From Rhina ancylostomus (Eukaryota): a stretch of DNA of 58,201 bases. The notes below the pieces were generated by a model that was not told the DNA's origin, made no database searches, and saw only the letters and a program-made list of their open reading frames with translations. The position numbers were made by a program, and so were the translations under genes. The stretch spans positions 97,084,241 to 97,142,441 of the forward strand of contig JARFYF010000001.1 in NCBI GenBank assembly GCA_030265395.1. Reading direction: 5' to 3'. Positions 966-54,237 of the stretch are shown here, piece after piece. Position 1 is the first letter of the stretch. Every line of letters starts with the position of its first letter.

Positions 966-989
966 ATGAATGGGGAAATATCAAAGGCA

Positions 990-14174: not shown

Positions 14175-14395
14175 TAAAGGACGTAAAAGGTCCTCTGACA
14201 CCATAAGAAGAGAAAGATCAAGCGAATACTCTCTGATTTCAGCTAATGCTTATTTCATTAGTGTTTGTGGAAGCGCACTGTAAGCATCTCCCTATATTAC
14301 AAATGGTACACTTCAGAAGTACTTAATTGGATGTAAAAGTGCTTTGCAGTATTCTGAGGTCATAAAAGGTGTACATAAATTCCATCCTTCCTTAT
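14175..14395 (+). mobile_element. DeuSINE (SacSINE1/AmnSINE-like) Deu-domain and tail remnant
   Basis: ggacgtaaaaggtcc..., tgtttgtggaagc..., tacacttcagaagtacttaattggatgtaaaagtgctttg...ctgaggtcataaaaggtg matches the Deu-domain and tail as I recall them. Confidence 0.7.
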
Positions 14396-15034: not shown

Positions 15035-15313
15035 CAGCTCCCAAATCCGCCATCTCTGCCACCAAGAAAGATAAGGGCAGTAGCTACATGGGATCACCAC
15101 CCCCTTAAGGTTCCACTCCAAGTTGCACACCATCCTGACTTGGAAATGTATCGCTTTTCCATCCTTGTCGCTGAGCCTAAATCCTGGAACTCCCTACCCA
15201 ACAGTATTGCGGGAGTACTTTCACCAGAAGAACTTCAAAATTTCAAGAAGGTGGCTCACTACTACCATCTCAGGGGCTGTTATAGATGGGTAATAAGTGC
15301 TGGCCTTGCCAGC
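15035..15313 (+). mobile_element. Elasmobranch CR1/L2-group LINE 3' end
   Basis: caccatcctgacttggaaatgtatcgc...aaatcctggaactccctacccaacag...ttcaagaaggtggctcac...gatgggtaataagtgctggccttgccagc. The same tail recurs at 25020-25080. Confidence 0.75.
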
Positions 15314-15319
15314 ATCAAC

Positions 15320-15718
15320 TATGCAGCCCAGTCCATTGTGCAAACCAGCTTCCACTTCATTGGCTCTGTCTACACTTCCCGCTGCTTCAGGAAAGCAGCA
15401 ACATAATCCCCCTCCCACCCCAGTTGTTCTTCTATCCCGCTGTTACTAGACTCCTGAATGGACCTTGAATGGATCTTGAGTGGCTGAAAGATGAACTCTT
15501 GATCTCCGAATCTAACTTATCGTGGCCCTTGCACTTTTTTTTGTCGACCTGCACTGCACCTTCTCTGCAACTGTAACACTATATTCTGCATTTTGTTTTC
15601 CTTTTTACAGCCTCGATGTACATATGTATGTAATGATCTGTCTGGGTGGCACGCAAACCAAAGCTTTTCACTGTATCTCACTCAGTACCAATGACAATAA
15701 TAAGCCAATACCAGTATA
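15320..15718 (+). mobile_element. Rex-Babar-like LINE 3' fragment
   Basis: AAQSIVQTS..IGSVYTSRCFRKAA peptide, then a 3' UTR ending gacaataataagccaataccag. Similar to 22515-22880. Confidence 0.8.
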
Positions 15719-17749: not shown

Positions 17750-18170
17750 CTGTTTCCAGGTGAAGCAGCCATTTAATTGTATTTCTTCCAAATTAGTGTC
17801 CTGTATTTGGTGCTCACACTGTGGTCTTCTCTTCAATGGGGACACCAAATGCAAATTAGTTGAGCTCTTGGCAGATTATGTGACCCTGAGCTTCCATGTG
17901 ATTATTACTTTAATATTCCATATCACTCCCACTCAGACCTCTTTTTCTTTGATCTCCTTTAATGTTACAATCAAGCTCAATACAAATTTGATGTACACCA
18001 CTTCTTCTGACAAGGCACATAATAGCCTTCCATACTCAACACTGATTTCAGCAATTTCAGATGATCAGCTATTTCCATATCTTCAGTGTACAGGAGACCG
18101 CATTGTGAGCACCAGTTGCAGGACACTAATGTGGAAGATGTACAATTAAATTGCTGCTTCACTTAGAAAA
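17750..18170. mobile_element. Penelope-like (GIY-YIG) fragments in inverted orientation
   Basis: + strand VKQPFNCISSKLVSCIWCSHCGLLFNGDTK and - strand VKQQFNCTSSTLVSCNWCSQCGLLYTED both match the PLE motif F.C.S.N.VYCI.C..CGL.YIGET. Confidence 0.85.
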
Positions 18171-18761
18171 GGTGCCATGCCTTTATCTCCCTATCAGGTA
18201 ATGCTCTACTTCTGGAGGGAAACTGAAGTCAAAAGGGTGAATAATAATTGCTAGTGTTATAGCTTTAACTGAACAATATATCTTAATGGGGACATAAATA
18301 AGATTTTGGGAACAAACATCAGCATACAATAAAATGTATTGAAAGCAAACAGAGTAGAAAAAAAATCAATGGGACATGGCTACTCAAAAGAAGGGTTCAA
18401 GCATAAGGGAAGAAATGCAGAGGGAAAAATGAAAGCTGAAATACAGTGTAGTGACCTCCAGTTTTTCCCTAAAGTGTAAATGTTTGCTGATTCATACCTG
18501 TAGTTCCCTACTATTGTTCACACACCAAATAAAGCAGATCGCGAATGGAGAGGACAGGACCAGTTTAATGATTGCACATTACAAGTAAAGAATTTCACCT
18601 ACTGGCAAATGAGGAATTCACAGATCATTACCCAGAATTTTCTATCCCAAAGATCATAGATGTCTCCAAAACAAACGGTTGGTGAGCCAAGCCCCCCTGG
18701 ATAGCACACATTTGTAAAACATTTTTTTTTAAGTGTTTCCCAGCGAAGATGTAAAATAGTT

Positions 18762-19880
18762 GTCAGCAGCAACTTTTTGTTTTTATTTAGCTCCTCCAAC
18801 ATGGAAAAACATCCCATAGAGCTTCTTAAGGACCCAATCAGACAAAAATAGAAGTCAGAACCAAGAAGTGAGTTTTAGTAAGGGTTTTAAGGTACGTTTT
18901 AAGGAGGATACTTAAGGATGAGAGGAGATGGAGTTGTTTGTGGAAGGATTCCATAACTTTGACCCCAGACAGTAGAAGGACCAGCTGCCAGTAGTGAGTG
19001 AAGGAGGACGGAGTAAAATGAGAGGCCAAGGTTTAAGAAATAATATTTTATGATAATGTAGGTTATTGGATGGAAATTTAGATATAAGCTTTGGGATTTT
19101 AAATTTAAGGGTATTGGAGGATGAGGGCTCAATGTAGCTTGGCAGCAACAGTAGTGTTGGGTGAGTGAGACCTGTCTTCGGAACACGATACACATGGAAA
19201 AGTTTGGCTTGCGCTGAAGTTTACAGAAGGTGGAAACTAGAAGACAGTCTTTGACCAAAACTAGATATGACAAAAGACTGGGTGAGGGTTGCAAGGGGGT
19301 TGGGGGGGAAGAAGACAGACTTCGTGATGGAGAGAATATCCGATTCATAACTCAGCTGAGAATCTCGGAATCCAAATCAGGTTTATTATCACTGATTTAT
19401 ATGTTATGTGGCAGCAGTACTGTGCAAAGATAAAATTACTATAAGTTGCAAAATAAATAAATAGTGCAACAATAGGAATAACGAAGCAGTGTTCGTGGAC
19501 CATTCAGAAATCTGATAGCGGAGGGGAAGGGGCTGATCCTAAATCGTTGACTGTGGATCTAGAGGCTCCTGTACCTCCTCCCAGATGGTAGTAATAAAAA
19601 GAGGGCATGTCCCCAGGGATGTGTCCTCAGTGCTGAATCTATTAGGATGCTGTGATTTTGAGCAGTCTTATTCAGTCTGACATGATAGTTGTGGAGGTTA
19701 TTGACATGGAGGCAACAAAGCTTGTATCAGTACTCAAACAAAATGGCATCAGTCATCTCAATGAGTAAATTGTCTGTGACCAAGCAATCAACCGATACAG
19801 AGCAAGTGTAGAGGTTTCAGGCAATAGTAGAGGTATAGAGTTGCATGTTATAGGGATGTTTATGGAGACCTGTGGCTGTA
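18762..19880 (-). mobile_element. L2 LINE 3' region (interrupted by Rex-Babar at 19365-19615)
   Basis: Reverse complement of an L2 tail at about 18765-18830, followed by gaaggattccataactttgaccccagacagtagaagg, typical of the elasmobranch L2 ORF2 end. Confidence 0.65.
19360..19615 (-). mobile_element. Rex-Babar-like LINE 3' end
   Basis: gaatccaaatcaggtttattatcactga tail, and ggctcctgtacctcctcccagatggtag...gagggcatgtccc (reverse of GHALF.LLPSGRRYRSL). Confidence 0.8.
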
Positions 19881-20240
19881 ATCAAGGGGCTGCTTCCCCC
19901 ACCCCAATAGAAAAGTACATTTATTGTTCATGTCCTTCCAGGCTTGCTTCAGCCTGGTTACTTACCACTAAAGCCTGAGTTTAAATGTAAATGAGTGGTG
20001 CCATTTGACCCAGTGAGCACAATTAAAGATGGATTTTGACTTGCTGAGATCTGTATTGTATTGCCATCAGTGCAATCAGTTACGCCGCCTGCAAGTGATG
20101 ACATTGAATCACAAATGCCTATTCCTACATTGGACTGCTGNNNNNNNNNNNNNNNNNNNNNNNNNNNNNNNNNNNNNNNNNNNNNNNNNNNNNNNNNNNN
20201 NNNNNNNNNNNNNNNNNNNNNNNNNNNNNNNNNNNNNNNN

Positions 20241-20400
20241 GCAGCCGTAACAGTGTCCCTGACCAGTATCGCCACCCCTCCTCCTCTTCTCCCACCTTCC
20301 CTATCCCTTTTAAAACATTGAAAACCAGGAACATTCAATATCCACTCCTGCCCTGATGTCAGCCATGTTTCTGTAATAGCCACGATATCAAAGTCCCCCA
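20241..20400 (-). mobile_element. CR1 ORF2 APE endonuclease N-terminal fragment
   Basis: DFDIVAITETWLTSGQEWILNVPGFQCFKRDREGGRRGGGVAILVRD. Runs into an N-gap. Confidence 0.9.
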
Positions 20401-20507
20401 TACTTCTTCTATGAATATGACAGTTTAGATGAAAATAAATTTGCTGAGAAATTTTATAGATTGCTTAAGCAGATGCAACTCCCTTAAACAGAGCATCAAT
20501 CATCTGA

Positions 20508-20675
20508 ATAGAAATTGGTGTAAATACCCAGCAGGCCAGGCTGCATCTAGGGAAAGAGAAACCAGTTCTGACGAAGGGTCTTTGACCTGAAACATTAACT
20601 GTTTCTCTTCCCACAAATGTCATATATCCTACTGAGCATTTTACAGCATTTTCCATTTTTATTTTAATTTTCAGC
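20508..20675. mobile_element. Penelope-like terminal fragments in inverted arrangement with a hammerhead-ribozyme core
   Basis: 20510-20562 is the reverse of 20600-20660. Between them lies CTGACGA-AGGGTC-TTT-GACCT-GAAAC (20568-20593). Confidence 0.75.
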
Positions 20676-21639
20676 AGTCATCTGAAGATTGCTGATAATG
20701 AGGTCTGGCAAAAAAGGACAGCATAATCAGTACCTAATGTGTTAGACTCAAATGACCTGATTGAGTGTATCTTAATCCTTTATTACAGATATATAAAGAT
20801 ATATTTACTCTATATGTAAGACCAAGAAGGTATTCCATTGGATTTCTTTTCTATTGCATTGTTTAGTTGTATTGAAGTAGCAACAAAAGAACTTGCAAGT
20901 TTGATCAGTTGATGAAGTTTGTGTGACTGTTGCAGGACACCACAGATCTCCAAGAAATGGCACAAGTCCACCACTACAATGGATAAAGGGAAACCCACAC
21001 TATAAACCCTGATGAGTCTTTGTGGGCAGATTTCACCAAAGTCAGTGATGAGTACAAACCCTCAATCGAATGGAAAATCTAAGCTATTTTGTGTTTGCAT
21101 GCAGAATGCAAGGAAAAGTTATAAATGGTAATTAAGGGTACGGATCCATTAAAGAAACTGAGGAGGAACTATGCATGGTTGGATATGGTGCTTGGCATGA
21201 TTCTCCTGTAGGATGCTTGGGATTACTTATGTGATGAAATGAGGAAGTATGGACTATTTAGCCCCTTGAGCCTGGTCTGCATTTCATAGAAGTAGAAAAG
21301 AAAGAAAGAAACATACCCTGGTGGTTGAAGCCAGTAAGAACGTGTAGCAGGTCATTTGGTCTCCTGAACTTGCTTCATGACTGATTAGGAGTGTACTTCC
21401 AAATGCCATTTTTGCTCCCTATCTCTTGATGCCCTAACTTAACGATTTCTCTCATAAAATGAAAGGCTTAAAATTGGCAGTTTGGATAAAATAAATTATA
21501 TAAACATAAAATACAGGAATAGGAGCATGTTCTGCCATTCAATATGATTGTGGCTGATCGTCCAAATTCAGTGCTCTGTTCCTGCTTTCTCCACTTTGCC
21601 TTTGATCCTTTTGGCCCCAAGAACTATATATAACTCCTT

Positions 21640-22400
21640 AGAGTCATAGAGACAAACAGCACAGAAGCAGACCTTTTGGTCCACCATGTCCATGCTGGCC
21701 TTTTTGCCCATGCGTAAATCCCGTTTGCCTGCTTTAGGGCCATATTCTTCTATGCCTTGCCTATTTAAGTGTCTGTTTAAATCCCCCTTAAACATAGTGA
21801 TTGTAGTTGATTTCACTACCTCTACTGTCAGCAGGTTTCAGATATCAACCACCCTCTGGGTAAAAAAAAACTTACCCTCAGACCCCTTTAAAACTCCTTC
21901 CTGTCACAAACTATGCCCTCTTGTTTTTGATGGCCCTACCATTGGAAAAAGGTTTTGGCTATTTACCTTATCTATGTCTCTTATAATCTTATATACTGCT
22001 ATCAGGTCATGCCTCAGCCTCATTTGTTCCAGAGAAAACAAGCCCAGCCTATCCAATCTCTTCCCTTAATCAAAGTCCTCCAATCCAGGCAACATCCTGG
22101 TGAATCTGCTCTGCACCATCTCTGGCACATTCACATTCTTCAATGTATCCTGAATTCCATATGCTCTATGTTCTTCTCTTTGGTAAATACAGATAAGAAG
22201 TATTCAGTTAGGATCTTACCCACCTCCCCTGGCTCCACACATAGATAACCTCTTTGGTCACTCCTATTTCAGAATGACTCAGAATTCTCCTTAATCTTAC
22301 CTGCCAAGGATATTTCATGGCCTCTTTTTGCCCTCCTAATTTCTTTCTTAAGCACTCTCCAGCACCGTCTATATTCCTCATGGAACTTACTCAATTGTAG
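21640..22400 (-). mobile_element. HER1/CR1 fragments inserted in the older CR1
   Basis: Own tail agagtcatagag...acagcacagaagcagacc at 21640. Contains LKKEIRRAKRGHEISLAGKIKEN (CR1 ORF2 linker). Confidence 0.8.
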
Positions 22401-22514
22401 TATATTGAATATTTTTAATGACTTGGCTTCAATTGTCTTCTGTGGTAGAGAATTATACAGGTTTACCACCTTCAGCTTGAAGAAATTTCGCCTCATCTCA
22501 GTCCTATATGGCCT

Positions 22515-22880
22515 CGGTAAAGCAGCCAACATAATCAAAGACACCTCTCACCCTGGACATTTTCTCTTCTCCCCTCTCCCATCGAGCAGAAGATACAAAA
22601 AGCTTGAAAACACATACCACCAGGCTCAAGGACAGCTTCTATCCCACTGTTATAAGACCATTGAACAGACCTTTTGTACATTAAGATGGACTCTTGACCT
22701 CACAATGAACTATGTTATGGCCTTGTACCTTTATCCTCTGCCTGCACTTTCTNNNNNNNNNNGCTTTTCCCTTGTACCACCTCAATGTGCTGATGTAATG
22801 AAATGATCTGTATGGATGGCATGCAAAACAAAGTTCTTTACTGTACCTTGGTACACGTGACAATAATAAACCAATTTACC
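22515..22880 (+). mobile_element. Rex-Babar-like LINE 3' fragment inserted in CR1
   Basis: GKAANIIKDTSHPGHFLFSPLPSSRRYK peptide; tail gtgacaataataaaccaattt. Confidence 0.85.
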
Positions 22881-23984
22881 CCTTATCCATAGTCTCTGAC
22901 CTCGGGTCATGAACTCCCACACCATCAAGAACATCCTTTCTACACCTAGTGAATCCAGTACTGTTTGAATTTTGTAGGTTTATATCAGATCCCCTCTCAT
23001 TCTTCTAAACTCTACAAAATATAGGAATCATCAACCCAATCTCCCTTCATACATCATTCCTACCATTTCAGGAATCAGTCCAGTGAACCTTTGTAGCACT
23101 CATTCCATAGCAAGAACATCTTTCATCAGGTAAGGCGATCAAAACTGCACACAATACTCAAGGGGTGGTCCCAGTACAAGTGCAGCAAGACACCCCTGCC
23201 TCGGTACTCAAATCCTCCTGCAATGAAAGCCAATATACCATTTGCCTTAAGTGCCCACTGCACCTGCTTGCTTACCTTAAGTGCATAAGGATACCCAGAT
23301 CCTGTTGCACTTCCCCCTTTCCCAACCTACGGCCATTCAGATAATAACCTGCCTTCCTGTTTTTGCCACCAAAGAGATAAACCTCAGATTTATCCAAATT
23401 ATACTGCACCTGCCACACATTTGCTCACCACTTTAACCCGCCCAAATTGCTCTGCATCCTCCTCACAGTTCGAACACCTACCCAGCTTTGTGTCATTAGT
23501 AAACTTTGATATATTACATTTAATTCCCTCATTTAAATAATTAATGAATATTGTAAATAGTTGCAGAACTGGCACTGATCCCTTCAGGACCCCTTTAGTT
23601 ACTTCCTATCACTTTTAAAAACTACCAGTTTAATACTACTCTTTGTTTCCTATCTGCCAGCTAGTTCTCTGTCCATGTCAATATCTTACCCAGTCCCATG
23701 TACTTTAATTTTGCACATTGATCTCTTATATGGAATCTTATTGAAAGTTTTCTAAATGCACCACATCTACTCATTCCCCTTCATCTATTCTACTAGTTAT
23801 ATCCTCAAAAAAATTACAGTCAGGTTTTCATGCATGATTTCCCTTTCATAAATTCATGTTGTCTTTGTCTGATCTTGTCACTGTTTCCCCAGTGCTCTGC
23901 TATTACATCTTTTATAGTGATATGAATAAAATAAAATTAGTAAGGTTTATACTTAATAAGGAATCTGACTTCCTGATGACATAT

Positions 23985-24750
23985 ATATTGACTTTATAGG
24001 AGTCTATAAAAGGATGAGGGGCATTGATGGTCTAAGTCTTTTTCCCAGGGCAGGGGAGTCTAGAACTCAAGGGCTCAGGTTTAAAATGAGAGGGGAGTAA
24101 TTTAAAGGTGAGCTGAGGACAAGCTTTTCACAGAGGGTGGTGGGTACATGGAACGAGCTGCCAGAAGAGGTAGTAGACTCAGATACAATGCAATTTTTAG
24201 AAGGCATTTGGATACATACTTGGATAGGAAAGTAGTAGAAGGATATGAGCCTAATGCCCAGAGGAGCTTCGCCAGGTTGATTTGTGAGATGAGGGGGTCA
24301 GCCTATGAAGAGAGATTGAGTCACCCGGGACTATACTCACTGGAATTCAGAAGAATGAGAGGGGATCTTATAGAAACATACAAAATTATGAAAGGGATAG
24401 ATAAGATAGAGGCATGAAGGTTGTTTCCACTGGTAGATGATACTAGAACTAGGAGACATAGCCTCAAGATTCGGGGGAGTAAATTTAGGATGGAGATGAG
24501 GAGAAACTGCTCTTTGCAGAGATTAGTCAATCTGTGGAATTCTCTGCCCAGGGAAGCAGTAAAAACTACCTCATTAAACATATTTAAGACACAGATAGAT
24601 TTTTGCATAGCAGGGGAATTAAGGGTTATGGGGAAAAGGCAGGTATATGGATCTGAGTCAATGGCCAGATCAACCATGATCTTATTGAATGGCAAAGCAG
24701 GCTCAACAGGCCAGATGGCCTACTCCTGCTCTTAGTTCTTATGTTCTTAA
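23985..24750 (+). mobile_element. Two tandem CR1 3' fragments (junction near 24257), the second with an intact tail
   Basis: QRSFARLI..MRG.AYEERL..GLYSLEFRRMRGDLIETYKIMKG and TRRHSLKIRGSKFR.EMRRN..QR.VNLWNSLP peptides; tail ttcttagttcttatgttctta. Confidence 0.9.
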
Positions 24751-25149
24751 AATAAAATCTGCATGGATTAAAAACTGCTGGAATTATCAGAATTATGTAA
24801 GAGAATTGAGCAGAAGTGAAAGCTAGATGTTTTACTGCAACATCCCAGAACAAATTTTATTTCATCTCCTTTTGACAAATTGTGCCCATTTGGATTTCTT
24901 TTCGGAACATAGCAGCTGTTAACAGTAACTTGATGAATGAGTGTTGTGGTGCCAAATACATTCCACAATTTGTAGTGTTCAGTACAAGTTGCCATGCTGC
25001 CTTTGGACCTGGAATCCTATAGGATGGGCAATAAATACTGGCCTCAACAGCAATGCTCGCATCCTGAAAAATGAACAAATAATAAGTTAATGATGCAACA
25101 CCAATTTCTTTGAGATGGCAAGGATAACCAGACATAGCATACATCTATC

Positions 25150-25560
25150 ATCAAAGCCAAAAAGATATTTAAAGAAGATGATATTTAAGAATTTGAAAGG
25201 TTGATGTACTGGGAACCAATACAGGTCAACAAGCTCAGCGTTGATGAACTTGCTGAGAGTTACAGGCTGCAGAACTATACATGATTCAGTTTGGTGTCCA
25301 GGTGACTGGTGGGCAATGACTTATAGGTGAGCAGAAGCAGAGGACAGCTGTCAAGGATGAATTGAAATTGTAGAGGCTGGGAACCACTAAACAATGGATG
25401 GGGAGTTCAGTAGTAAATGGACTGAAATATAGATGAAGACTGGCAATATTACAGAGATAGAAATGGGCAGTCTTTGTGATGGAGAACATATGGTACAAAG
25501 GCTTAGTTCAGAGTTATGTAGGATGCGGTTGCAGTGTGTTTCACTGTGAGGACTGCTGAA
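25150..25560 (-). mobile_element. Degraded L2 fragment
   Basis: Minus-strand peptide SITKTAHFYLCNIASLH resembles the L2 motif ITKTA.FHLRNIARL. Confidence 0.6.
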
Positions 25561-28139
25561 TGAGATGGGATATCTTCTGAAAGCTGCTTTAAAAATGAAA
25601 ATCCTTTACTTCCCTTTTTCTCACTTTTGTTGATCCTCTAGCTACCCACAGGCATCCCACATCCATACTTACCTCAACCGGATGCAATGGGTTAAAACCA
25701 CAAGCCCAAACCTTCCTGGATTCTAGTATCCTGGTTTGAAAAGCAGCAGGGACTCCAGCAGAACAGAGAAGTTTTGTCCCTGAAATGACACAGAGCTTTG
25801 ACAGGTGGGAATCCCTTTCCCTCAGCATTACCGGCTGTCAAAGCTGTAAAGACCTTTGAATGTCTCTGACATTCAGCAATATCAGCAATGAATGAAATAT
25901 TTTGTAAACTTAAATGGTTAAAAATTAAGAAATAAAATTAGCTGAAATTTTTAGAAATTATAGTAATATTAAGTAACATCAAATCAATTAAAAATCTGAC
26001 TTGCTTTCTACTTTGTTTTCTTCTCTTTTGTCCTACAAAAGAAAAGAAATCAAAGTATGTGGATCCTGCACTAGATCTAACCTAGCACAAGGTTTAAGAA
26101 CTAATTCCCTTACATAAGTACTAGGAAATCTCAGCAAGACCACACTCTGCTGCTGGACTACATGGGAGGTCCAGTGGTGGAACATCTGGACAGTCATGGT
26201 GCCTGCTACTACCTAATGTGTTCAGGACTACTATGTTTGGCTACAAATTCACAAAAGTCTCTGAATTGCTTCCATTTGCCAGCAAAATCAAGGTCAAAGG
26301 CCCTAACATTTGCAGTTAAAACACTAAAATTTGACCAATATCATGGCTCAGAATTAGTTTGGTTCTACATTCCAAGTTGCTGCTAATGATTTCAGTGCTG
26401 TTTATCCAGTTCATACTGCTAAACAGTTTTGCCAAGGGGAATAAAACATACAAATCACTACCTTTGCTCTTCACCTTTCACTATGCAAGGCATTGTAAAG
26501 AATTGTAAATACATCATTTGTTTAGAATTGTAGTCTTCCATCTCTTTCCAAATTGCTTCTCAAAGTAAATTGCATCTTCTTGTGAGTTCAGACATTTTTA
26601 GTGGCAAAAGTATGTTGGATTTTCATGGCAAACTTTTGATTCCTATTACCTCCATAAAAGTGATACAAAATTAGACTTGGATTGTTGACTAAGTATTGCA
26701 GAAGTCACAAGTTTAGATCACATGGCAGTCAATATTTAAAATCATTAAGAAAATACAAACAGTGTTTTACAAGATAACATGAAATAAATATTCCTAAAAC
26801 ACTAAAATAAGAGTGCTACTTTCTGTGTAAGTCAACTAAAAACGATGGCCTATTTCTTGCCTGCATATATCCCTTTACATCCCAGTGGGTTTAGGACTCC
26901 CACACAAATGCAGATGTCCCGAATATGCTGGCCACTCTTTAACAGTGATTTCCCTGTTGCACCGTACCACTGGGGCCCAACAGTGGAGCAGATGCTTCCT
27001 GATACTCAAGCATTTACGCTGGGAAATCTGCTCTTAAGTCCTGCACAAGGTTAGAATTTGCACAATATTTGTGAGCTTATTCACGTCATGATGAGACTGC
27101 TTCAAGAAAGTAAAGTATTATGGTCTTTCGCATGCAATATAAATAACATAATTTATTCAAAATTTGTGTTTAGTATGCAATCCTGTATATTAAATTTTCT
27201 TGATCACTGTCATAGGAGATCTGCTCGTGATTAAGGAAAGACACTAAATTGATGTATTGTTGGACACTCCATTTCATCTGCAGTTTCCCTTGCCCTCTTC
27301 AAATTACCTATTGTCAGTGTTGATCCAGATCAAACACAGAACCCAAATGCGGCACACCAATACACAACTGGAGTCAGGATACTTCCTCAGGACAAACCAC
27401 AAGCAATAACTGGAAGGAATCTTGCCTTGGAGATCAGAAGAGGAATCCCAACACAAACTGGATCTTTGCAAAGGNNNNNNNNNNNNNNNNNNNNNNNNNN
27501 NNNNNNNNNNNNNNNNNNNNNNNNNNNNNNNNNNNNNNNNNNNNNNNNNNNNNNNNNNNNNNNNNNNNNNNNNNNNNNNNNNNNNNNNNNNNNNNNNNNN
27601 NNNNNNNNNNNNNNNNNNNNNNNNNNNNNNNNNNNNNNNNNNNNNNNNNNNNNNNNNNNNNNNNNNNNNNNNNNNNNNNNNNNNNNNNNNNNNNNNNNNN
27701 NNNNNNNNNNNNNNNNNNNNNNNNNNNNNNNNNNNNNNNNNNNNNNNNNNNNNNNNNNNNNNNNNNNNNNNNNNNNNNNNNNNNNNNNNNNNNNNNNNNN
27801 NNNNNNNNNNNNNNNNNNNNNNNNNNNNNNNNNNNNNNNNNNNNNNNNNNNNNNNNNNNNNNNNNNNNNNNNNNNNNNNNNNNNNNNNNNNNNNNNNNNN
27901 NNNNNNNNNNNNNNNNNNNNNNNNNNNNNNNNNNNNNNNNNNNNNNNNNNNNNNNNNNNNNNNNNNNNNNNNNNNNNNNNNNNNNNNNNNNNNNNNNNNN
28001 NNNNNNNNNNNNNNNNNNNNNNNNNNNNNNNNNNNNNNNNNNNNNNNNNNNNNNNNNNNNNNNNNNNNNNNNNNNNNNNNNNNNNNNNNNNNNNNNNNNN
28101 NNNNNNNNNNNNNNNNNNNNNNNNNNNCCAGCATGGAAG

Positions 28140-28625
28140 TTTTAATTAACAACAAAGCTTCCATTTGTATACCACCTTCATTGTAGCAAAACATACCGAG
28201 GCATTTCACTGGAATATCACCAAACATGAGATATCTACAAGAGATATTGGAGCTTGGTTAATTAGTTATGTTTTAAGAAGCATCTCAAAGAAGCAAGTGA
28301 GGTGAAGAAGTTTGTAGAGGGATGTCCAGACCTTAGGACCTTGGCAGCAGAAAGAAAGTGATGGTGCCAAATTTTAAGAAGCACAGATGTCATGATTGTT
28401 GAAGAAATGGAGGAGATTACGGAGGTATGGAGGAGTGAGCCCACAGAGGGATTTACAAACCAAGCGGAATGCAAATTTGAAAACTGAGGGTTTGTTTAAC
28501 AAGGGGCTAATGTAGGACATCAAAAACAAGGAAGAGGGGAAATGGGTCTGCCTTAGAATGTGCATAGAAGGGCTTTGGATGACAAGTTTGAATGAAGGTA
28601 CCTAGCAAGGAGTGTGCGGATGGCG
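28140..28625 (-). mobile_element. L2 LINE 3' end
   Basis: aacaacaaagcttccatttgtataccaccttcattgtagcaaaacataccgaggcatttcac is a reverse L2 tail. Similar to 18765-19200. Confidence 0.75.
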
Positions 28626-30336
28626 AGATGTAATTCTTTAAAATTCAGTGTCAAAGACAGTTGTTATTTTGTTGGTAAGTCAAAGAGTAGTATTGTAATC
28701 ATAACATGAAGTTATGCTTGAAGAATGAAATCTAAAGTGGATCCAAATGCAGATAATTGTCTGAAGTGTTAAGCATCCTCTTAAATGTTTCTTCGCTGAG
28801 ATTGAAATAAAAGTCTATTCATCACAGCGACCTGTAGCACTTTCCAATGTTAAAAGTGATAGGTAATAAAACAAGGTGTTTTTTCATATAATTTTATTTA
28901 AAGCATTCAAACAACATGATTACAATGGTTATGTAAAGAATTTTAAGTTGACAACACAAGTGACTAATTAATGATCTAATTAATGCACCCTAGTGTTTAT
29001 ATAGACATTTTTACTATGGGGAACTCTTTGAAACACTTTTTACTGCAAATTAAAGGTTCTTTTCCATAATTTTTTTTTTGTATTTTTACTGCTGTATAAA
29101 CCAATCCTGATGGTCTCCATTAAAATGATGTAGATCTATGTGTAAATGTTTGATGTGCTATTCTCTTGAGGGGCAGTAAAATAATCATTGTTCAGTTAAA
29201 GACTAATGTGAGCTCAAGGGATCAAGGCTCATCACAGCTAGTGAAAATTAAGCTGCTTAAAATGTTTATCCTATCCTCTTGATCCTAAACTTTGATGATT
29301 GAAGAAAGGTGAATATCTGCAAGATTCCAGAAGTTACACTCCTCTCCTATTAAATATTAACTTCAGAATTTAAATATTTCTCAAAGACAAAAAGCCAGGA
29401 AGAACCATAATAATCTTCAAAGTGCTGGTATATAAAAATGCAGTATGCATTAGTTAAACCAGTGTGAGAAAGGTTATTTTAATTACTTAAGTGCACATTG
29501 ACAGGAATGAAGGAATAGATGTTTAAAAAGAATGTCTGTGGCATTAAGTAGCCATGGCAAACCTCAAAAATACAAATAAGAGCAGAAATACATAAAACAA
29601 AAGCATAATTAAAATGGAAATGTGCAAATTGGCTATTCTGGACCAATTGAACTGATGACTTTGTGTGTGAGATATGGGTTGTAGTTACCAAAATTCTAAA
29701 TAATAACAGACCAGGAAAACAATTTGATGCATTATTTCATGTCATTATATTAAATCCATGTCTGACTTTTATGTAGATATGTTGTTGAGATCAGTAACAC
29801 AATATTGGATTTCATTGCATTTCAACTGAATGGCACCTTAGTTGTCAGAAAGAACATGAGTTTAAACAGATATAACCATTTGAAGTGCATGAATAAAAAG
29901 AAAGTGTACAGTTCAGATTTTATGTGTCTGTACTTATTTATATTATGTGCCTGGAGTCGCTCACTCTTGTAGACTAATGTGAACTTGATTTCATTTTTTA
30001 CCTAGTTTTATTTTAGTTTGCGGGGTTGGAATTGGTGATATATATTTAAATGAGGATATTGATACCTCATTATTTTCCTGTAAGACACTCAGTACTTGAA
30101 TATTTATGCATACATGTGGACATGGTTATATGGCAGTTATAAATTTCCCCTTTTGGGAAGACTGTAGGTGTTTGAAGGTTACATTATACATGACAAGTGT
30201 TGCTGCCATGAATGTTGAAGCACAGGGAAGTCACAATAATTACAGAGTATTGGCTACTGACTTTGGAACAAGCCCTCAGGGAAACTACAGCCACCAGCAG
30301 GTTTGCGTGTTGACAGTTTTTTTCTTTTCCTCTTAG

Positions 30337-30486
30337 CTTTGAAGATATAATAAGGTTCTTTGGGGTGAAGCCAAAATCTGGGGAGAAAGAGATTACACCA
30401 AACTACATATTCATGTTGTGGTTTGAGTTCTGTACGGATTTTAAGAATACTTGGAAACGCGAGAGCAAAAATATCTCTAAAGAAAG
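30337..30486 (+). CDS. fmn1: Internal coding exon of formin-1 (C-terminal end of the FH2 domain; 150 nt, phase 2/phase 2)
   Basis: Strong acceptor gtttttttcttttcctcttag| with a TGAC branch-point candidate at 30311, and donor AAG|gtaaga at 30487. Translation (x)[49 protein letters not shown](R) closely matches the vertebrate FMN1 segment as I recall it ([51 protein letters not shown]). The [12 protein letters not shown] ending fits FMN1 better than FMN2. Confidence 0.95.
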
Positions 30487-30589
30487 GTAAGAAAGATAAA
30501 ATCTTCCATGGAAAACTTTTAATCATTCTGGAAAGTATTCTTCTTTAATTTGAACACTTTTACTGTACCATCGAATTATAGTTTACTGA

Positions 30590-31100
30590 CATTTTTTTGT
30601 GAGCTCGGCGTAAAAAAGTTTGATTCCCTCAGGGTAGATTGAAGAAGTTGCCAAAATCTGCTTTACCCACAAGGAAGATAAACACACATAATCTGATAAA
30701 TTACACTTTCCCAACTCTTTTCAATTACCTGCTGATAAAGTGGAATGAGAGCAGTGCTAATTTGTAACAGATTGCTTCACTAGTGCATTTTTATGTTGAA
30801 ACAGCCTAAATGAGCTGATATTATTGTTGCAGAAAGTACAGGCAAATAAAAGCAAATGCTTTTCCAGTTATTAAACTTCACTTGCATCAAAGAAAAACCC
30901 CCCAGACCTAGGCCACACTTAGCACAATGTCAGAGCCCCACACTGAATTTACGGCAGCACATATGACCCCAAGTACCCTGCTGGGGACATCAAACTGCGT
31001 GACACTGCTTCTCGCAACAGTCTCCTGATTTTATTGGTTTGAGAAAGAATAACCTTATCCCATATTTGCTTTTAGGTAAGGTTTCATGAAGGAAGTTTTT
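30590..31100. promoter_or_regulatory. Candidate grem1 fin/limb enhancer (CRM2/GRS1-like) in the fmn1 intron
   Basis: Non-repetitive block next to the fmn1 exon. Contains HOX13-type TTTTATTGG (31029-31037) and GGCGTAAAA (30607), HOX-like TGAATTTACGG (30944), TCF/LEF CATCAAAG (30885) and ACATCAAAC (30987), GLI-like AACCCCCCA (30896), three WGATAA sites (30676, 30694, 30733) and E-box CATATG (30960). Function is inferred from motif content and locus position only. Confidence 0.5.
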
Positions 31101-32699
31101 ATGTGAGAGCTACATTACGACTTAAAGATTGGCATTTCTCAGTTCTGTGCTCTTTTTACACTCCTGTGTTATAAGCTCTGATTCAGTATTTCAGTTTTCA
31201 ATCAAACTAAACACTGAAATCGTTAAAGTTATGATTTTTATGTGATGAGATTTTTAAGCAACTATGGAGCAAAGAAAGAAATATTTTGTATATTTTCAGC
31301 CTATTGTCAATTTTATCAATATAAGCTATTGCAATAGAGTCTAATCCATTTAGATCCTTGTATTTGGAAAGTTATCTATACTTACAATTGTGAAATATTT
31401 TGATAAAATCTTGGCTCTAAAATTATTGTTATATTCCATAGAAAAATTATATAAATAACATTTTCACTACATTAACAGTTCAGACAACTCAGTACAGTTT
31501 CCTGGCAGTTTTCTTTAATTAATTCAATTTAGGTAACAATACAAGTATAAACATATTTTCTTTAAATTATTTGGTCAACTTTTATGTCATACTTACTGTC
31601 TGAATACTATTCAAGAAAAGCCAGTTGGATTTAAAATGTTTAATGTCTGATTCTATGAACACTCTTGGGAAAAGTAATAAAAATTGAAGAAAAATGTGTA
31701 GGTAATGTAACACAATGCAATACTGTTAACTCATTGGTTTCAAAATTACATCATTGCTGATGGTTATTCATAGATTTACTTCTGTATCAATGCCTTTTGT
31801 GCTGGATAAAATAAGAAATTAAATTTTCTTCATGATACTGTGCTGTATGGATAATAAGAATCTTATGTCAACTGCTACTTTAGGGTTAAAGTTGGAATTT
31901 AATCAAAAACAGAAGGAATCCATTAAGATATATAACCAAAATTGGGAGTTCCTTGAAATGTTGTAAAATGGAACAGCAGAAAAAACATCCACATCTAGAA
32001 TGTCTTGTAAAGTCATGACCCTTAGTGACACTGTTTTCCTAAGTGTGAAACCGTTGATTTACCACCCAGTTTACTAGAAGTGGATCAGAATCAAATTAAT
32101 TGATATAATTCTAGCTTTTCTAGTCTCGTGTTTCTCTTTTCATTCCAACTGTGTTAATGCAGATCTATTATGAAGCATTATTGAAACAATATTATTTAGC
32201 CATTCATATTACCACATTTACTCTCTAATGCGGCATGAAATCAATGGGTTGACTTGATGGAGTAGTATAAAATGGATGATAAAAATGTAAATCAGGCTGT
32301 CAATTCACATCTAACCATTTTACGCCAGTGCAAACTATCAAGATGCAACTCAACCTTAGAAAATTGACTCAACTTAAGGTTCATATTTTAGCATGCTGTA
32401 GTGTCAGCAAAACAGGACTATTAAAATTTTGATCCAATATCAAATTACATTGAGCTCAGGCACATGATGTTAATATTGTTGTGTTAATTTTTTCCTGTTT
32501 ATTTAATCTAAGTACTTTAGATACATGTGCCTTTAAATCTTGTTGTGTTATGTTTCTGCCAACACTCAGATGTTGTTAGTTTGTATTCTGTCACCCATTC
32601 ACTCAGAGAAAACAGGAACTGTGGATTTATTAACACAAAGAAGGAACTGACTCACAAGTAGGGAAATACATATTCATTGGCAAAGGGACAGACTCATTA

Positions 32700-33237
32700 G
32701 GACAGATTTTCTGACCCATACCCCTGTGCTAGCACTACATTGAAGCTGGGGACCTACAGCATGATCAAGACCTTGCTATTTCCTGTCCCAGGCAATTAAT
32801 CTAGACCAGTGGCATACCCAACATAGCCCAGGTATAAAGCCTGCAGCTACAGGATGTAGAGATTGGGATCTTCTCCTATTATTGAAGATCAGTCTCCAAA
32901 ATGTTAAAGTTGGATATTAAGAGCCTTACAGGAAGGGATTGTAGGGGATGGGGGCTGGGAATCTAACTTGGAAAATAACACCATGCAGCCTTTGGTCTGT
33001 CCCCAGCAGTGCCAATGGACTTTGCTTAACTCCAGTCAGTGACGTGCCACAGCACAGTACTTCCTGGGTGCCTCTGTGCTGGGGTGCCCACCAAATAATT
33101 GCAGCACATGGTCTCATTTGAAGCAGGCCTGCACCTCATGGAAGTGTAGGATAAATTCCATCTTTACCAGCTCATGGAAAATGGTAGAAATCTTGAAGGA
33201 AGAGGATTGAAGACCAGGCAACCTGAAAGTCTGTCCC
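32700..33237. mobile_element. Non-autonomous DNA transposon (MITE, PIF/Harbinger-like)
   Basis: Terminal inverted repeats GGACAGATTTTC (32700) and GAAAGTCTGTCC (33225), 11 of 12 matching, with TTA/TTT flanks. Confidence 0.55.
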
Positions 33238-33849
33238 TTTATCCCAATGTTTCTGAAGGCAAGGATAAGAATAATCAGCCTGATTATGTTCATTCTAAGA
33301 TGTAAATATTCTGTGTCTCAGAGAGAGATTAGAGGCAAATGCTGGCACTTGATGGGTAATTATACCTCACTGCCTTTGTAATCTTCAATTCCCAATTTCT
33401 GTTTCCTTTAACTAAAACTAAGGCTGCAAGTATGAAATTTCAAGTTTGTCATATATTCATCCACTGAAAAATTGCTATTAAGTTTTTTCTTAGAGATTGA
33501 ATCCAACCAAAGATTTTAAAATTCTGTCAAAAAATGCCCCAGTATTACAACAGATAAATTCATCAAAGGTATAACTGTAAGCAAAATGAACAAAGAACAT
33601 GCAAGTATTGAATGGCAGGTTTCATACGACGAGTACAATAGGATGCTACAGCTTATCTGAGCATTTTGCTTTTGGAGTTGAAAATCAGCTAGGGTTCATG
33701 CTCCTATCTTTGGGCGTTAAGTTTTAGTCTTCTGGTAGTAGAAAAGATCCCCATGAATAGTCACTGGACAACCCTCAGTAGTGGCCCCACTCCTGACCAT
33801 GACTCTGCTACATTCTGCATCTTCAGTCACCAACACACAAAAAAACTAA

Positions 33850-34026
33850 GGGGTGGATTTCTGCAGAGGATTTCCAACTTGTCTGCTGTAATCTTAGCAA
33901 AAAGATAAACCTCAGACAAACAGCATAGACTCAGATAACAGTCTCTACAGTTTTTTTCTCAGCTTTGGATCTCTCCCACCAAAATCACAACAGACAAGCA
34001 AGAAACTCCTTGCAGAGATTCATCCC
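33850..34026. mobile_element. Palindromic MITE (Harbinger-like)
   Basis: Imperfect inverted arms of about 55 nt (GGGGTGGATTTCTGCA... / ...TGCAGAGATTCATCCC), flanked by TAA and TTA. Confidence 0.7.
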
Positions 34027-37000
34027 TTAGTAATCAGGTTTTAAATTTAAATTTGTGTAAAAAAAAATAAAACACAAATAGGGAGTTTTGGAGTAAGTAC
34101 TTTTTGTTGAAAATGTTCCAATTTACCATGATGATAAAAGATTGGAGAGCATGACTGTGTGGTATTATTAATCCGAAAAGTAGACACCATAATCAAATAA
34201 TCATTGCTTCGATGTTCTTGTATTTCAAATGTGCATAGAAATTCAGTTCTTTGACACTGATGGATACCAGAAACTAGAAATTCTAATGCGCATAGAAACA
34301 TCCGCTAAAATTGCATTGTGCAGAGGGCATCATGCCAGATTCTTTCTCGGCCACAGGGGAACAAATTTCTTATGTGCATGAATGTGTAAGGCCCCATGCA
34401 AACAGGCATTCAGAATTCCAGGCCTTCAGCATGGTTACACATCGTAACTTAGTGCAGTTTCAAGAGCGTGCTATAAGCGCAAACTTACAAGCATGCTCTC
34501 CTGCTGTGACGAGAGCTTTAAAAGCAATGGTTCTCAACAGGAACCAAACCAAGAGTGGCAGGTTGGAGTCAGGAGCAGGCATTGCATGTTTCCAACAGAT
34601 GATCAGGCTTCATGGCAACAGAGGTAGACACACAGGGGAAGCATTTTGTCTCTAACAAAGAAAGAAGATCTTACATAGCATATTGGAGACATTTGATCAC
34701 TCAGAGATGATTATATAGTCATTGTCAATGGCAAACTCCTTAACAGCAGCTCAGGTAAGGTCTGTCCCCTTAGCCTACATCAAGCAGATTCATGTTAAGT
34801 TCTGCTTATTTTTTAGTCAAGGTCCAGTATGCAGAGTTCAATGTTGGTATGCACACTAATAGTGTTGCATGCTAATGGACATCATTAATGGATGCCAAGC
34901 CAGGAGTGTTTTGCACATAGAAACCAGTGATTGAGTTTCCCATTGTGCGCTGTATGCACATGAAAGTGTCAATCGCATTGAGCGAAAAAGTTTGTCATGC
35001 AATTGAACTCCAAGTTTGAAAACAGTTTTGGAAATCAACATTTGAAACAAAATATATAAACTGACTCAAAGAAATAGCCTGATAAAATTAATCATAATTC
35101 ATTGTATCAGTTTTTTAAATATACCATGATAACAATATTTATTCCAAGGTGGAAAGATGTAGCTTTAATCTGCTTTCATCACAATTTGGTATGGTTTTGC
35201 ATAATTTAGTCATAGAAATTTCATCCAATAACTTGTATATTTTGAAGACAAACCTGCTTATGCTTAGCAAACTTTTTTGTTCTAGTAAAGACATGTGTTC
35301 TTTCAATCCCATCTGTGAGGTCACAGAGTTATAGGAAATAAAAGACCAAAAGGGCTTCACTAACAAAGATGGGATTCAGGTCTGAATAAATCAGAACTCC
35401 CTGGGATATTATGCAGAAAATAATTTCACTTGCTGTTAACTCAAGCTGAGCTAAATCACACAATTAAAGTACAAGAGAAACAAGCAACACTAATAGGTAA
35501 AACAAATGGTGTGTAATAAGGGTTGTCTTAAGGAAACTGATGAAATGCAACTAGTCATTTCATACATGAGAAAGTAGGCGTCTCGCGGTAGACCTTTCAC
35601 TTGATTTTATAGAGCCTGAATGAAAAGTAAGCTGCCAAAGGCCCTGATTACTGTCTCTCTGGGAAAGTATTTGAAATGTGAAAGGTGAATTGATGCATGT
35701 CTGTGTTTGCCTGGACTTATGAAAGACTTTTTACACACTGGGAATATGTTAATTTTAAATGGAAACACTACTAAACTGATCTGCACTATTTGCACAAATG
35801 AAGGTTTGTTGTTACAGCAAAACATTTTCAGTGCTTTATTTTATAATCTATTTCAATGTTTTGTTTGTTGCATGTTATGCTGTGGTTTATTATGACTGAG
35901 GAATATTTAAAATAATCACCCAAGTGGACATGGCAATCGTGATTCTGCAATCCTGTACTCCCAGCAGAAAACTGACAGGAATTGTTTGTAAGAAAACTGT
36001 GGGCCAATGCTCAATTCCATTTCTATGAGTGTGACCTTAGGAAGGCAAAATCACAGCAACACCCTCAGCTGAGGCTTATTGTAGTGAAACAGTTATCAGT
36101 TATACAAATGGGCAGGAAAACCCTGAAGACTGAGAAATCAGTAGTCATGTAGACTTCAGTAGAGGTCAAAGCCTGCATAAAATCCTCAATAGATACCAGA
36201 CTGGAGATCTTATTGACCACTGCAGAACATTGGCGCAAATGGCAATTCTTCCCATGTCTACGGCTGCCTTCTACATAGTGGTTCCAGGGAGTGGTGGTAA
36301 CTGAAATAGCCACTAGGAAATTCTGCCAGAGACTCATTGACTTCTCTCTGGTCCTAGCAGGGGTTGGGGAGATGGAAATTCAATTCATGGGGTGTTGCAA
36401 AACCTCATGACCAGAAATATTTACTAAATTTGCTCATTTTTGTATTGCAATGTACATCACAGCTAACCCCAGATATGCACATCCTGGCACTAGCTGTGTA
36501 CTCAGGCAGAATTAGTTGTTATAGTCATTTTACTTCCAAAATGTTAAGTTTTTTTTAGATTTGGAATCAGGCAGAAACTGTTATTGTTCTATATCATTCT
36601 TACAACATTGCCTGATTACCTTTGCAAAGCTGCTCATTTTGACTGTTACAAATGCAACTTTCAAAGTTTGACACCTGAGGATAATATTTTAGTCACTGTG
36701 ACTGAAATTAGCTTGGTGTGGTCAGTTTAGATTGAAGCCAATGGTAGTTCAAGTCCTAACCATTTTAGATTTTGTCTTTTTTTTATTAGTGATGGTTATA
36801 TTTACAGCAGATATATAGATTATCTATGTGCATAAGGCAGTCTTCTGGCAATGTGACAGACATTTACTGCAGCTACTTCATTGGAAAATAGAGAATCTAT
36901 AATCTGCTGAGGACACAAGTAGAGTTCAATTACAAAAATGGAAATTAGAGGTCAAAAACACAAAACTATTCTGTAACACTAATGGGTTTGTACTTATGGA

Positions 37001-37687
37001 CCCTGTACTAGGAAAGGGAAATGGAAAAGGAAATCATGGAGAGTAGGAGTATCAAAATTATTGATCTAGGATATCAGAGTGGCAACAGCCCTGGCTAGAT
37101 TTTTTGAGGCAGGAATATGCATAAACTGAAGGGAGATTCAAATTTCAAGTCCATTTTGTCCATCAGTACTCTCCTCTGGCCCAATCAACCTACCCCTCCC
37201 CTAAAATCACAACATCTACTGTTTCCTAACACAATTGGAACTTTTCACCTCTCCCCACCCCTGATGTTAGTTGATGCCTTCAGTAGAGACCTCCTCCCAC
37301 ATGATCTCTCAGAGTCCTGACCCAATCCCTGAGGTGCCAGTTATTCCCCAGCTCAGACTGATGTCCTACCATTCCGTGCCCTATGCTCTATCTGCTTTTC
37401 ACCACCCCATAATCCACCAACCAGGACACAACTTATCAGCTTTCCTTCCCTAATGACCTCTGCATTTAACATGCTTTTCCAGCTATCAACTAATTTCCAG
37501 GCTAAATGTGTCAACAAAAATCTGCTTTTAGAACTTATAATCATTGATACGTCCGTTTTATTTTACACAGTACTGCACCAAATGACTTAGATTGTGATTT
37601 TAATAATTAGTAATTTTTGATTTTTCATTGCATTTCTGTTGTGTTATTGAACCACAGTTATTAGGCAGCCTGTGTCTTACATTGATA

Positions 37688-37990
37688 TAAAAACAGAAAA
37701 TGCTGAAAACACGCAACAGGTCAGGCAACATCTATGAAAGGAGAAATAGAGTTAACATTTCAGGTCAAAGATCCTTCATCAGAGAAAACAAGTTAGTTAT
37801 AAATTGCGGAAAGCATCATTGGGGGTGGGGTGGGGGGTTGGAATGGATAGGACAAAGGAAATATCTCTGATAAGGTGAGGCTTGGGTTGCCAAAGCGATG
37901 AGCAGTAAATGAGATCCTGTCAAGGGGTTAGTAGGGAGAGTTAGAGAGAGGAAATCTGAATAAACACACATAAAAGCTATGAAATGAGGG
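37688..37990 (-). mobile_element. Penelope-like 3' fragment with a hammerhead core
   Basis: aaaacagaaaatgctgaaaacacgcaacaggtcaggcaacatct... belongs to the same family as 20510-20675. The minus strand reads CTGATGA-AGGATCTTTGACCT-GAAA (37782-37758). Confidence 0.75.
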
Positions 37991-40853
37991 CAGTTAGAGA
38001 TTGAAAACACAAATGTAAAAATCACACAGTGTAGTGCAGGAGGACATGTCCAGCAGACCAGACTGTGCTAATGGAGAAATGTCTTTCATTGTACTCCTTT
38101 TCTTTAGCACCTTGAATTCATGATCAGAATTAAGGAAAAATATATTCTAAGTATCATACTCCGAGGATAAATGTTAACTTTTTAATTAAAATCTCAGCTG
38201 TTGCTTTTTTGAAATTCATGTCTGACTGCCCATTTTACTTAGTGCTTCATTTCCTAAACCTGTTGTACATTCATGCTTGTGCTCTCCATTCTATTTATTC
38301 AGCAGTTTCTAGTTTTTTTAAAAAAAACTCATTTCATTATATCAAAGCCAGAATATACATTCATAACTACTGTGTTTAAAAAAAAACAAACTAAACTAGA
38401 GTAAAATAAGCAGTTTGTTATGAATGAGAACTTTTAATGTTTGTGTAATCTCAATATAAACAGTTAACATGTTTCTCTTGGAAGATGATGTGTGTATTAG
38501 CTTCAAAGATCATTAGCACAAATTCTAAATGTTTTACTTCTCTCATTAGTCACACTGAATTTACACGGGTGCATGAGTTTCACCATCTCAAGTGATGAAT
38601 GATGATATCTGTCTTCTTTTGAAGAGATGCCTATTACAGCTATTATAGTCAGATTTCACATTTCCCCTCAATGAATTTCTGACCTTTTCCATTTAAAATG
38701 GGCTTTTACTAGCTGTTTCTGACAACTTAATTGGAGAATTGCATGGTATTCGCATCATCCTTATTTTAAATCAGTCAGGATATTGGCCACTTTGCTAACA
38801 TTCCATATAACTCATTGACCAATAATTTCACTTCAGTTATGATATACAAATTATTACAAAACCTTTCAAAATTCATGAACACAAACAGTATCTTCCTAAT
38901 GAAGACTCTCTTATTTTCCTCTCTTCAGTCTACCCATGCAAAGTAAAAGAAATACAATGAATGAGCCAGACCACTGACCTTTAGTGAATAGCAACAAAGT
39001 TTGAAACTGGCCCAGAGCACTGGATTAAAAACTCCGATCCTTCATGGTTGCAACAGATTTAGATGAAAGAAATTTAGACTAGCTTGAACAAGTTATTAAT
39101 TAGGATAAAATCCTGAAAATTCTCACAATGGACCACAATTTGGTACTCAGTTTGTGATGTGGCTTGCAAGGACATTATAAATCCCTTGTTTGAAAATAAA
39201 AACGTTACACTCAACCAGCATTGGAAACTGTTCTGAAGCTGAGTTAGGAGAATGTAAACAGATATTCACTCTTCATTTCGCATATGCAATATTTGGCCAA
39301 GAGATGTTTTGTTCAGAAAACATTGCACAATCGGTAGATTCTTTGGGACACCTTTGCTGACCTTGGCAAGCCCAGACATTCACCATAGAAAAAATACTTT
39401 CACAAAAGCAAAGTTAATAATGTCTTGAAAAGGGCAAGTTATGAACAATTTAGATGTCTTGCTGTCATAAACTTTTAAACAAATGGCAGTAATTTATCTC
39501 CTAAAGAAATACATGAATTTTAATCTCATTAAAATAAGGCTTTGTCACAGGTCACAATCCAGTCCACCTCTCACTGTACTAACTACCTCTAGATAAATAA
39601 AGTTAAGTTTACCATTTTTAAATACTTATTGTGTTTTAACCCCTCATAAATCTAGTTTGGAGAGGATTCAAGCCTCAAGTCAGGGTGTGGTAGACACGGG
39701 AGTTATAAAAGGATGATACAGAGCCAACAGGATCAAAGGGACTTGTGAAGAGAATTATAGGATGTTGGAATGAATGGCCTTGAATCTAAAAAGAATACTG
39801 AGCTTGGTACAGAACTATTCAAAGCTAACTTAGTAATATAACCAGGAACAAAATGAAGAAAGCAAAAATAATAATTAGGAGATTGGATGGATTTGTGTGT
39901 GTACAAAACTAATGAAGGATGGAACCTAAGGAAGGATGAGATGGAGCCAAAAGGGGAACTGTGGTAATTTGGGCAGATCTAGCTGAGCAGTTACGTGGAG
40001 TGGCTTTTGTGAACCTTAAGTGGAACTGGGAGAAAAAGTCGTTTAATAGTTCAAAGGCTTTTGATTGAAGGCATTTTAAGAGCAAGATCTCGGGAGATGC
40101 CTCCTGAGATCCAACCACCACTCTTGACCTGCTCTGCCTCCTGAGACAACCATCAGGTATGGGTGGTCCGCTTAGCCAGGTAATGATTCTCCGGAACAGG
40201 TTGGTTTGAAGTGCAGGAGGCAGGCACCTGAGTGGTGAGTTCAGATCCAGGACAGTCCAATCTTTTGAGTTAAAGAGAGAAAAGTTCTTGATAATAAGAG
40301 CCAAATATAGGGTTATATCCAGAAATCATTCATGCCAGTATGACCAATCCATGATTGGATTTATACATAATGTAACGAAAGCAGAAACATTGGAAATATT
40401 TAAGCACCAACAAATGCTACATTTGCTTAACTATAATGCCATTATAGATGAATAAAGTAAAATGGACTGAATGAAATAGACTCATCCTTACCCATCTTTT
40501 GATGTCTTTGTATATACTCTTAAAACAGTATTTTAGGTAGAAGTCTCTGATTCAATTACAAACACAAACTATAAATTAAAGCATATTGCAAATATGAATG
40601 CCTTTCTTATAAGGAGTAAAAGATTACAACCATTGTTCAAGTCAGAATGCCCTTTTCAATATAGTTTATACTGCACAAAAAAACCTTTGCAGATCATTTT
40701 ACTTAAGGGAGTGAAAGAATATTATAAATTCCATTTATCACTGCATTAAGGAAGTGCCCAAAGGGACAGTTGTCTCTCTTAAACTACCTTATGGTTCTTA
40801 CATGAACAAACCATGCCACACTGAGATTACAACATGTTGAATGTAATAACAAG

Positions 40854-41813
40854 TGGCCCAGATTTCTTAGTCAGCAGTGAAATTAATGCATTTGATAATG
40901 ATCTCAAAGAAACACGGTAGTGTAGTGGTTAGCATGATGCTATTACAGCGCCAGCGACTGGGGTTCGATTCCCGCCGCTGCCTGTAAGGAGTTTGTACGT
41001 TCTCCCGTGTCTGCGTGGATTTCCTCTGGGTGCTCTGGTTTCCTCCCGCATTCCAAAGATGTATGGGTAGGTTAACTTGGGGTTTAAAATGGGCAGTGTG
41101 GACTCATTGCGCCGAAAGGGCCTGTTACCACACTGTAAATAAAAACTTTAAAAACTTGTCCACATTTTATTCTCTATGACTTCTATTTTGCCTTTCCTGA
41201 CATCAGTTGATGTCAGCCGTCATCTTTAGAGATCCCTAGCAACAACAGTGAAGTCATCAAACAGCCCCTGTCACATTGAAGAATTCTCATGTTCTGCAAA
41301 CCAGGAAGTAAAAAGCACAATTTAATTGACATTTTAAGCATTGTACAGAGTGTGAAATGAATATTGAAACATGTATATGGGAGGCTGAAATAGCAAAAGA
41401 ATTTTTTTAAATTTTAAACAAGTGTGGAATTTTAAACTATTTAGATAAGAGAATGTCAGTCCACATACTTAAAGCTGGTTTTAGAATCAGAGAGGTTGTT
41501 AAGCAATCATTTTGGTTTAGTGAGCTTTTAAGAAGACTTGTGTGTCAAACAAGTGTGACATTTTTAGGGAACTTATTGCTTATATATAGAATATTCCTTA
41601 ATTGTTCCTATTAGTGCACTCATTCCTTCAGCTTGCCCTTGAGATGGCTTCAAAACAGCTCACTTTCTGAAGGAACAGGGACTGACAGTAGCTTCTGGAT
41701 TTCTGCATTCAACTAAACATGTGTGTACTTCAGAAGTCATTGTCAGATTTCCTCTATTTATAACAGTGAGAACTGAAAGCCTCACTATTATTCTCACCGC
41801 AAATTCCGGGCCA
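40854..41813. mobile_element. Non-autonomous DNA transposon with TGGCCC(A/G)GA(T/A)TT termini, containing a SINE insertion
   Basis: Left end tggcccagatttc (40854), right end gcaaattccgggcca (41799-41813). Internally similar in layout to 52272-53290. Confidence 0.6.
40912..41155 (+). mobile_element. tRNA-derived V-SINE/HE1-like SINE
   Basis: A-box-like tagtgtagtggttagc, B-box GGTTCGATTCC (40962), V-domain ggagtttgtacgttctcccgtgtctgcgtgg.tttcctc.gggtgctc.ggtttcctccc and an A-rich tail. Confidence 0.92.
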
Positions 41814-54200: not shown

Positions 54201-54237
54201 CCTCACTCTTGATTTTCTTTTATATCATCAACAATAT

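Follow-up and report, generated by a model that had tools for sequence, protein, structure and literature searches.

Grem1 and Fmn1 are reported to be linked in all species examined, and their landscape is described as conserved in two cartilaginous fishes (PMC3541112, PMC8455560). According to Zuniga 2012 (PMC3541112), a conserved non-coding block termed HMCO1 adjoins Fmn1 exon 22, and its deletion abolishes Grem1-LacZ expression in mouse limb buds. The same report describes GRS1 as dependent on SHH and modulated by BMP, with GLI3 binding HMCO1, and it presents the GLI-bound regions as being without a consensus motif (PMC3541112). In the nomenclature of Malkmus 2021 (PMC8455560), GRS1 became CRM2 and HMCO1 became the CE element, while CE22 denotes the core plus Fmn1 exon 22 (PMC3541112, PMC8455560). 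Deletion of CE was reported to abolish CRM2 activity, and exon 22 to be integral to the element in each species tested there (PMC8455560). Teleosts reported to be without HMCO1 retain exon 22 (PMC3541112).

The CRM2 elements of two sharks were active in mouse limb buds, in 5/5 expressing embryos for bamboo shark and 6/6 for elephant shark, with a pattern that was broader than that of grem1 in shark fins (PMC8455560). Mutation of either the Hox13 or the Gli sites disrupted the activity of the bamboo shark CE, autopod activity being lost in 10/10 cases upon Hox13-site mutation (PMC8455560). As Malkmus 2021 reports it, deep conservation is confined to CRM2, CRM5 and CRM8 (PMC8455560). In skate, grem1 is described in the posterior pectoral fin and the clasper mesenchyme; it persists in claspers and is induced by SHH beads. 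Supplementary Table 10 of a skate study (PMC10115646) appears to give grem1-promoter contacts at about 20-60 kb (FDR 0.81) and 150-270 kb (FDR 0.19), which are not used as evidence here. That CRM2 exists, occurs in sharks and follows a Hox13/Gli logic has already been published, so a copy in Rhina ancylostomus would not surprise a specialist. The literature searched, which covered few subscription journals, contained no assay of CRM2 from a batoid.

We analysed a stretch of 58,201 nucleotides of R. ancylostomus DNA, referred to below as the window, whose features are listed in Table 1. Searching the 58-kb window with 17 named formins (tblastn) retrieved a single exon, all remaining matches having E values of at least 0.26, and the ends of the alignments coincided with the splice sites of this exon for 17/17 of the queries. 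Read from 30338, the exon is open across 49 codons, while the frame from 30337 is interrupted by stops; no ORF among the 40 in the window that reach 100 aa from stop to stop covers it. In the formin of Hemitrygon, the equivalent of the exon spans residues 1230-1278 and the Pfam FH2 match stops at 1265, which places about 36 residues inside FH2 and 13 beyond it. The FMN1 C-terminus lies 41 residues past the exon. The boundaries, frame and ORF list thus bear out the first-pass annotation, which had described a 150-nt exon with canonical splice sites that was missing from the ORF track, and the Hemitrygon FH2 limit agrees with its reading of the exon as the end of the FMN1 FH2 domain. When the 49-aa exon peptide was searched alone it gave 0 matches in Pfam and 1 match in PDB (E 0.033), which we regard as chance. 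As a separate observation, the database model of the Pristis formin has about 40 residues missing before the short upstream exon, and its Pfam FH2 match ends at profile position 294/372; the gap is probably an exon missed in annotation.

Table 1. Positions of the exon, its splice sites, the enhancer match and the flanking introns in the window
Feature	Positions	Strand	Remarks
Upstream intron (presumed intron 21)	1..30336	+	Sequenced DNA holds no fmn1 exon; interrupted by six N gaps; LINE fragments at 8.7-24.7 kb
Splice acceptor (AG preceded by a polypyrimidine tract)	30310..30336	+	AG at 30335-30336
fmn1 coding exon	30337..30486	+	150 nt, phase 2 at both ends; end of FH2 plus 13-14 residues
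Splice donor, consensus GT	30487..30492	+	AAG/GTAAGA, GT at 30487
Downstream intron (presumed intron 22)	30487..58201	+	No next fmn1 exon or grem1; few detectable repeats
Approximate full HMCO1/CE	30587..31100		Extrapolated from the 508-bp human interval, unaligned; 5 Hox13-like 7-mers
Match to the conserved HMCO1 core, probably its orthologue (CE of CRM2/GRS1)	30659..30826	+	By-eye comparison with the alignment in PMC3541112 Additional file 1

The closest protein matches to the exon were elasmobranch formins, led by those of Pristis pectinata (98%, E 6e-23) and Heptranchias (96%), and no protein named formin-2 occurred among the best 120 of 149 matches. The exon peptide is identical to the Pristis formin at 48/49 positions and to human formin 1 at 37/49. 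Across the larger set, identities were 42-48/49 for 13 elasmobranch FMN1-type proteins and 33-38/49 for 4 bony-vertebrate FMN1, as compared to 27-29/49 for 12 chondrichthyan FMN2 and 23-27/49 for 3 other FMN2. All 17 FMN1-type rows (33-48/49) therefore outscore all 15 FMN2 rows (23-29/49), where rows titled simply "formin" or "formin-like" were assigned to FMN1 and cluster with named formin-1. When these 32 selected rows were placed in a tree with the query, on 49 columns and with the FMN2 rows drawn from a second protein search, the tree separated FMN2 from FMN1 plus the exon with a branch support of 100/100, its finer forks being unresolved at 49 columns. The comparison against both FMN1 and FMN2 that the first-pass annotation had proposed thus puts FMN1 nearer and excludes FMN2, whose rows fall below every FMN1-type row and form a separate, fully supported clade. 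The FMN1 assignment of that annotation is upheld by both the identity counts and the tree split, and its elasmobranch origin by the nearest matches. Within the 32-row comparison the sawfish row is the nearest to the exon peptide, and Ile 4 of the peptide is common only to the 4 non-stingray batoids sampled, which makes a ray origin likely from the sequence itself.

In the intron that follows this exon, a match to the published HMCO1 core begins 172 bp past the exon donor. By hand count on a by-eye comparison, with an error of one or two columns, the match is identical to chicken in 139/168 columns and to coelacanth in 138/168 (about 82%), a level exceeding the published HMCO1 conservation threshold of 74% over 100 bp. 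A 21-nt block of the core occurs exactly at 30754-30774, with a chance expectation of 0.01 even when 3 mismatches are allowed; since this probe was picked after the match had been seen, it confirms the location and is not a discovery. The core has the same orientation as the exon, in agreement with the mouse coordinates and with the HMCO3-HMCO2-HMCO1 order toward the Fmn1 3' end. As the published HMCO1 block adjoins Fmn1 exon 22, we take the exon to be the counterpart of that exon. About 0.2 kb is thereby aligned to a known enhancer, and about 0.5-1.2 kb would belong to it by extrapolation. No self-repeat matches were found at 29.5-32 kb, and the Rfam and tRNA searches returned 0 and 0 hits.

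The core differs from chicken in about 29/168 columns. Compared with both chicken and coelacanth, two of its substitutions create additional sites, one a Hox13-like 7-mer (30789) and the other a second GATA-like site (near 30744). Across the extrapolated 514-bp element, the 5 Hox13-like 7-mers compare with a mean of 1.86, a count reached in 8.6% of 537 windows, and the Gli consensus was found once as compared to a mean of 0.82, showing no enrichment. The scan used simple consensus patterns for Hox13 and Gli. Lenient weight matrices were used for this purpose in PMC8455560.

Profile scans of the 58-kb window for the two fmn1 exons preceding this one and the two following it, with some boundaries inferred, reached best scores of 15-27 as compared to self-scores of 56-145. 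As no other fmn1 exon rises above background, both introns appear to be long, unless an exon is hidden in one of the six gaps. Presumably, exactly two fmn1 coding exons follow the exon at 30337-30486. The preceding short exon, of about 18 codons, was not seen in the 30 kb sequenced upstream; either the intron is long or the exon falls into an N gap, such as the one of 653 N at 27475-28127. The interval from exon 19 to exon 22 is reported to span about 50-70 kb in lobe-finned fish and mammals (PMC3541112). The DAN domain of grem1 was found in none of the 32 of 40 long ORFs that were scanned, the 8 omitted ones spanning N gaps left of the exon; a Glyco_transf_22 match below the cut-off in the same scan was taken as chance. 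The absence of grem1 from the window is expected, because 27.7 kb are available on the right as compared to about 70 kb reported in mouse. Going by published synteny, grem1 would be situated to the right of the window on the minus strand, as the first-pass annotation had supposed.

Repeats are distributed unevenly along the window. Decayed LINE fragments cluster at 8700-24750, with related pieces near 11.5-12 and 21.7-24.7 kb, and far fewer were detected right of the exon; one of them, on the minus strand, carries a Pfam RVT_1 match (9505-9987, E 2e-9). An inverted 95-bp pair at 17744-18178, with 81% identity and about 250 bp between its arms, may derive from the two termini of an ancient DNA transposon. 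Right of the exon, weak self-matches and reading by eye revealed three related SINE-like copies (~40912-41140, ~49466-49620 and ~52760-53110), the one at ~40912-41140 having a tRNA-like head; these may be of the V-SINE/HE1 type. At 47673-47743 there is an exact tandem duplication of 36 bp in 2 copies.

Taken together, these results suggest that the fmn1 exon and the CRM2 (GRS1/HMCO1) core match probably act in this species as a long-range fin-bud enhancer of grem1. The placing of the window in the Grem1-Fmn1 landscape by the first-pass annotation gains stronger support than it had claimed, with a known enhancer core adjoining the exon. By analogy, the exon and the core would act together on grem1 in posterior fin-bud mesenchyme, with Hox13 and Shh/Gli (and BMP/Smad4) inputs binding the core, and the element would contact the grem1 promoter beyond the window's right end. 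Grem1 would then antagonise BMP and thereby keep the Shh-Grem1-Fgf loop of fin and clasper outgrowth running. The exon itself would be dual-use DNA, serving both as fmn1 coding sequence and as a part of the grem1 enhancer. We infer these inputs and the role in fin mesenchyme because the shark and mouse orthologues behave in this manner, and from the expression of grem1 in skate.

Several other readings of the locus were weighed against a grem1 enhancer at the exon. The core might be a true orthologue and yet act mainly in a different tissue, at a different stage, on fmn1, or in the splicing of the adjacent exon, from whose donor it is only 172 bp away; a native assay in any cartilaginous fish was found nowhere in the literature searched, and the mouse tests did not reproduce the shark pattern as reported. 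We consider this quite unlikely, since the CRM2 orthologues are reported to drive a heterologous promoter and to require sites for Hox13 and Gli (PMC8455560), the mouse core is required for Grem1-LacZ, and exon 22 is kept in teleosts reported to be without HMCO1 (PMC3541112). The flanking-exon scans at background and the six assembly gaps left of the exon would fit a scaffold misjoin, or an exon that is an orphan or belongs to a pseudogene. This is very improbable in view of the intact frame and splice sites, the 48/49 identity to sawfish and the enhancer core at its expected place, and the corresponding introns are reported to be long in lobe-finned fish and mammals as well (PMC3541112). FMN2 does possess a homologous stretch, and an exon derived from it would put the window in the grem2 neighbourhood, grem2 being linked to FMN2. 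The ranking of all 17 FMN1-type rows above the 15 FMN2 rows and the fully supported branch make such an origin vanishingly improbable, and HMCO1 was published at the Fmn1-Grem1 locus (PMC3541112).

A wider claim, compatible with an enhancer at the exon, is that regulatory sequence for grem1 in fins makes up much of the window's non-repetitive intronic DNA, as the first-pass annotation had proposed. It could draw on the self-matches, a crude proxy for repeats that amounts to 654 bp right of the exon vs 2786 bp left of it, and on the position of the region inside a mouse deletion interval reported to be needed for Grem1 (PMC8455560, PMC3541112). Repeat poverty gauged without a repeat library is a weak indication, however, and the deep conservation reported extends only to CRM2, CRM5 and CRM8 (PMC8455560). 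Probes for HMCO2 (CRM3) and HMCO3, one short probe each, had 0 matches in the window at 3 mismatches. The coelacanth HMCO2 and HMCO3 are reported to lie 32 and 66 kb upstream of HMCO1 (PMC3541112), and the window offers just 30.6 kb upstream of the HMCO1 core, short of both distances. With these probes negative and the motif enrichment not significant, the claim finds no support beyond about 1 kb, and we regard it as unlikely.

More speculative still is the idea that the extra Hox13-like and GATA-like sites are specific to rays, where they might extend or prolong grem1 expression and thus have a part in forming the claspers or the wing-like pectoral fin; we hold this to be very doubtful. If true, cis-regulatory changes in the ray CRM2 would have contributed to the body plan of batoids. 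The exon plus core, about 1 kb in all, form a ready fragment for comparing CRM2 activity between ray and shark. For the grem1 enhancer reading itself, the analysis pins a known appendage enhancer, about 450 million years old, to exact coordinates in another cartilaginous fish.

Compared with the systems described so far, the Rhina copy resembles CRM2/GRS1 in its core identity of about 82%, in adjoining the FH2-terminal fmn1 exon and in its orientation relative to fmn1. Against chicken and coelacanth it differs at 30789 (the Hox13-like site) and near 30744 (the GATA-like site), and the mammal-specific ME part is not expected in it. Among its closest published counterparts are the CRM2 elements of bamboo shark (Chiloscyllium punctatum) and elephant shark (Callorhinchus milii), both active in mouse. 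Of FMN1, the FH2-domain actin nucleator, the window holds a single exon. The FMN2/grem2 locus, finally, has a paralogous protein stretch, but one that belongs to a separate clade, with chondrichthyan FMN2 at 27-29/49.
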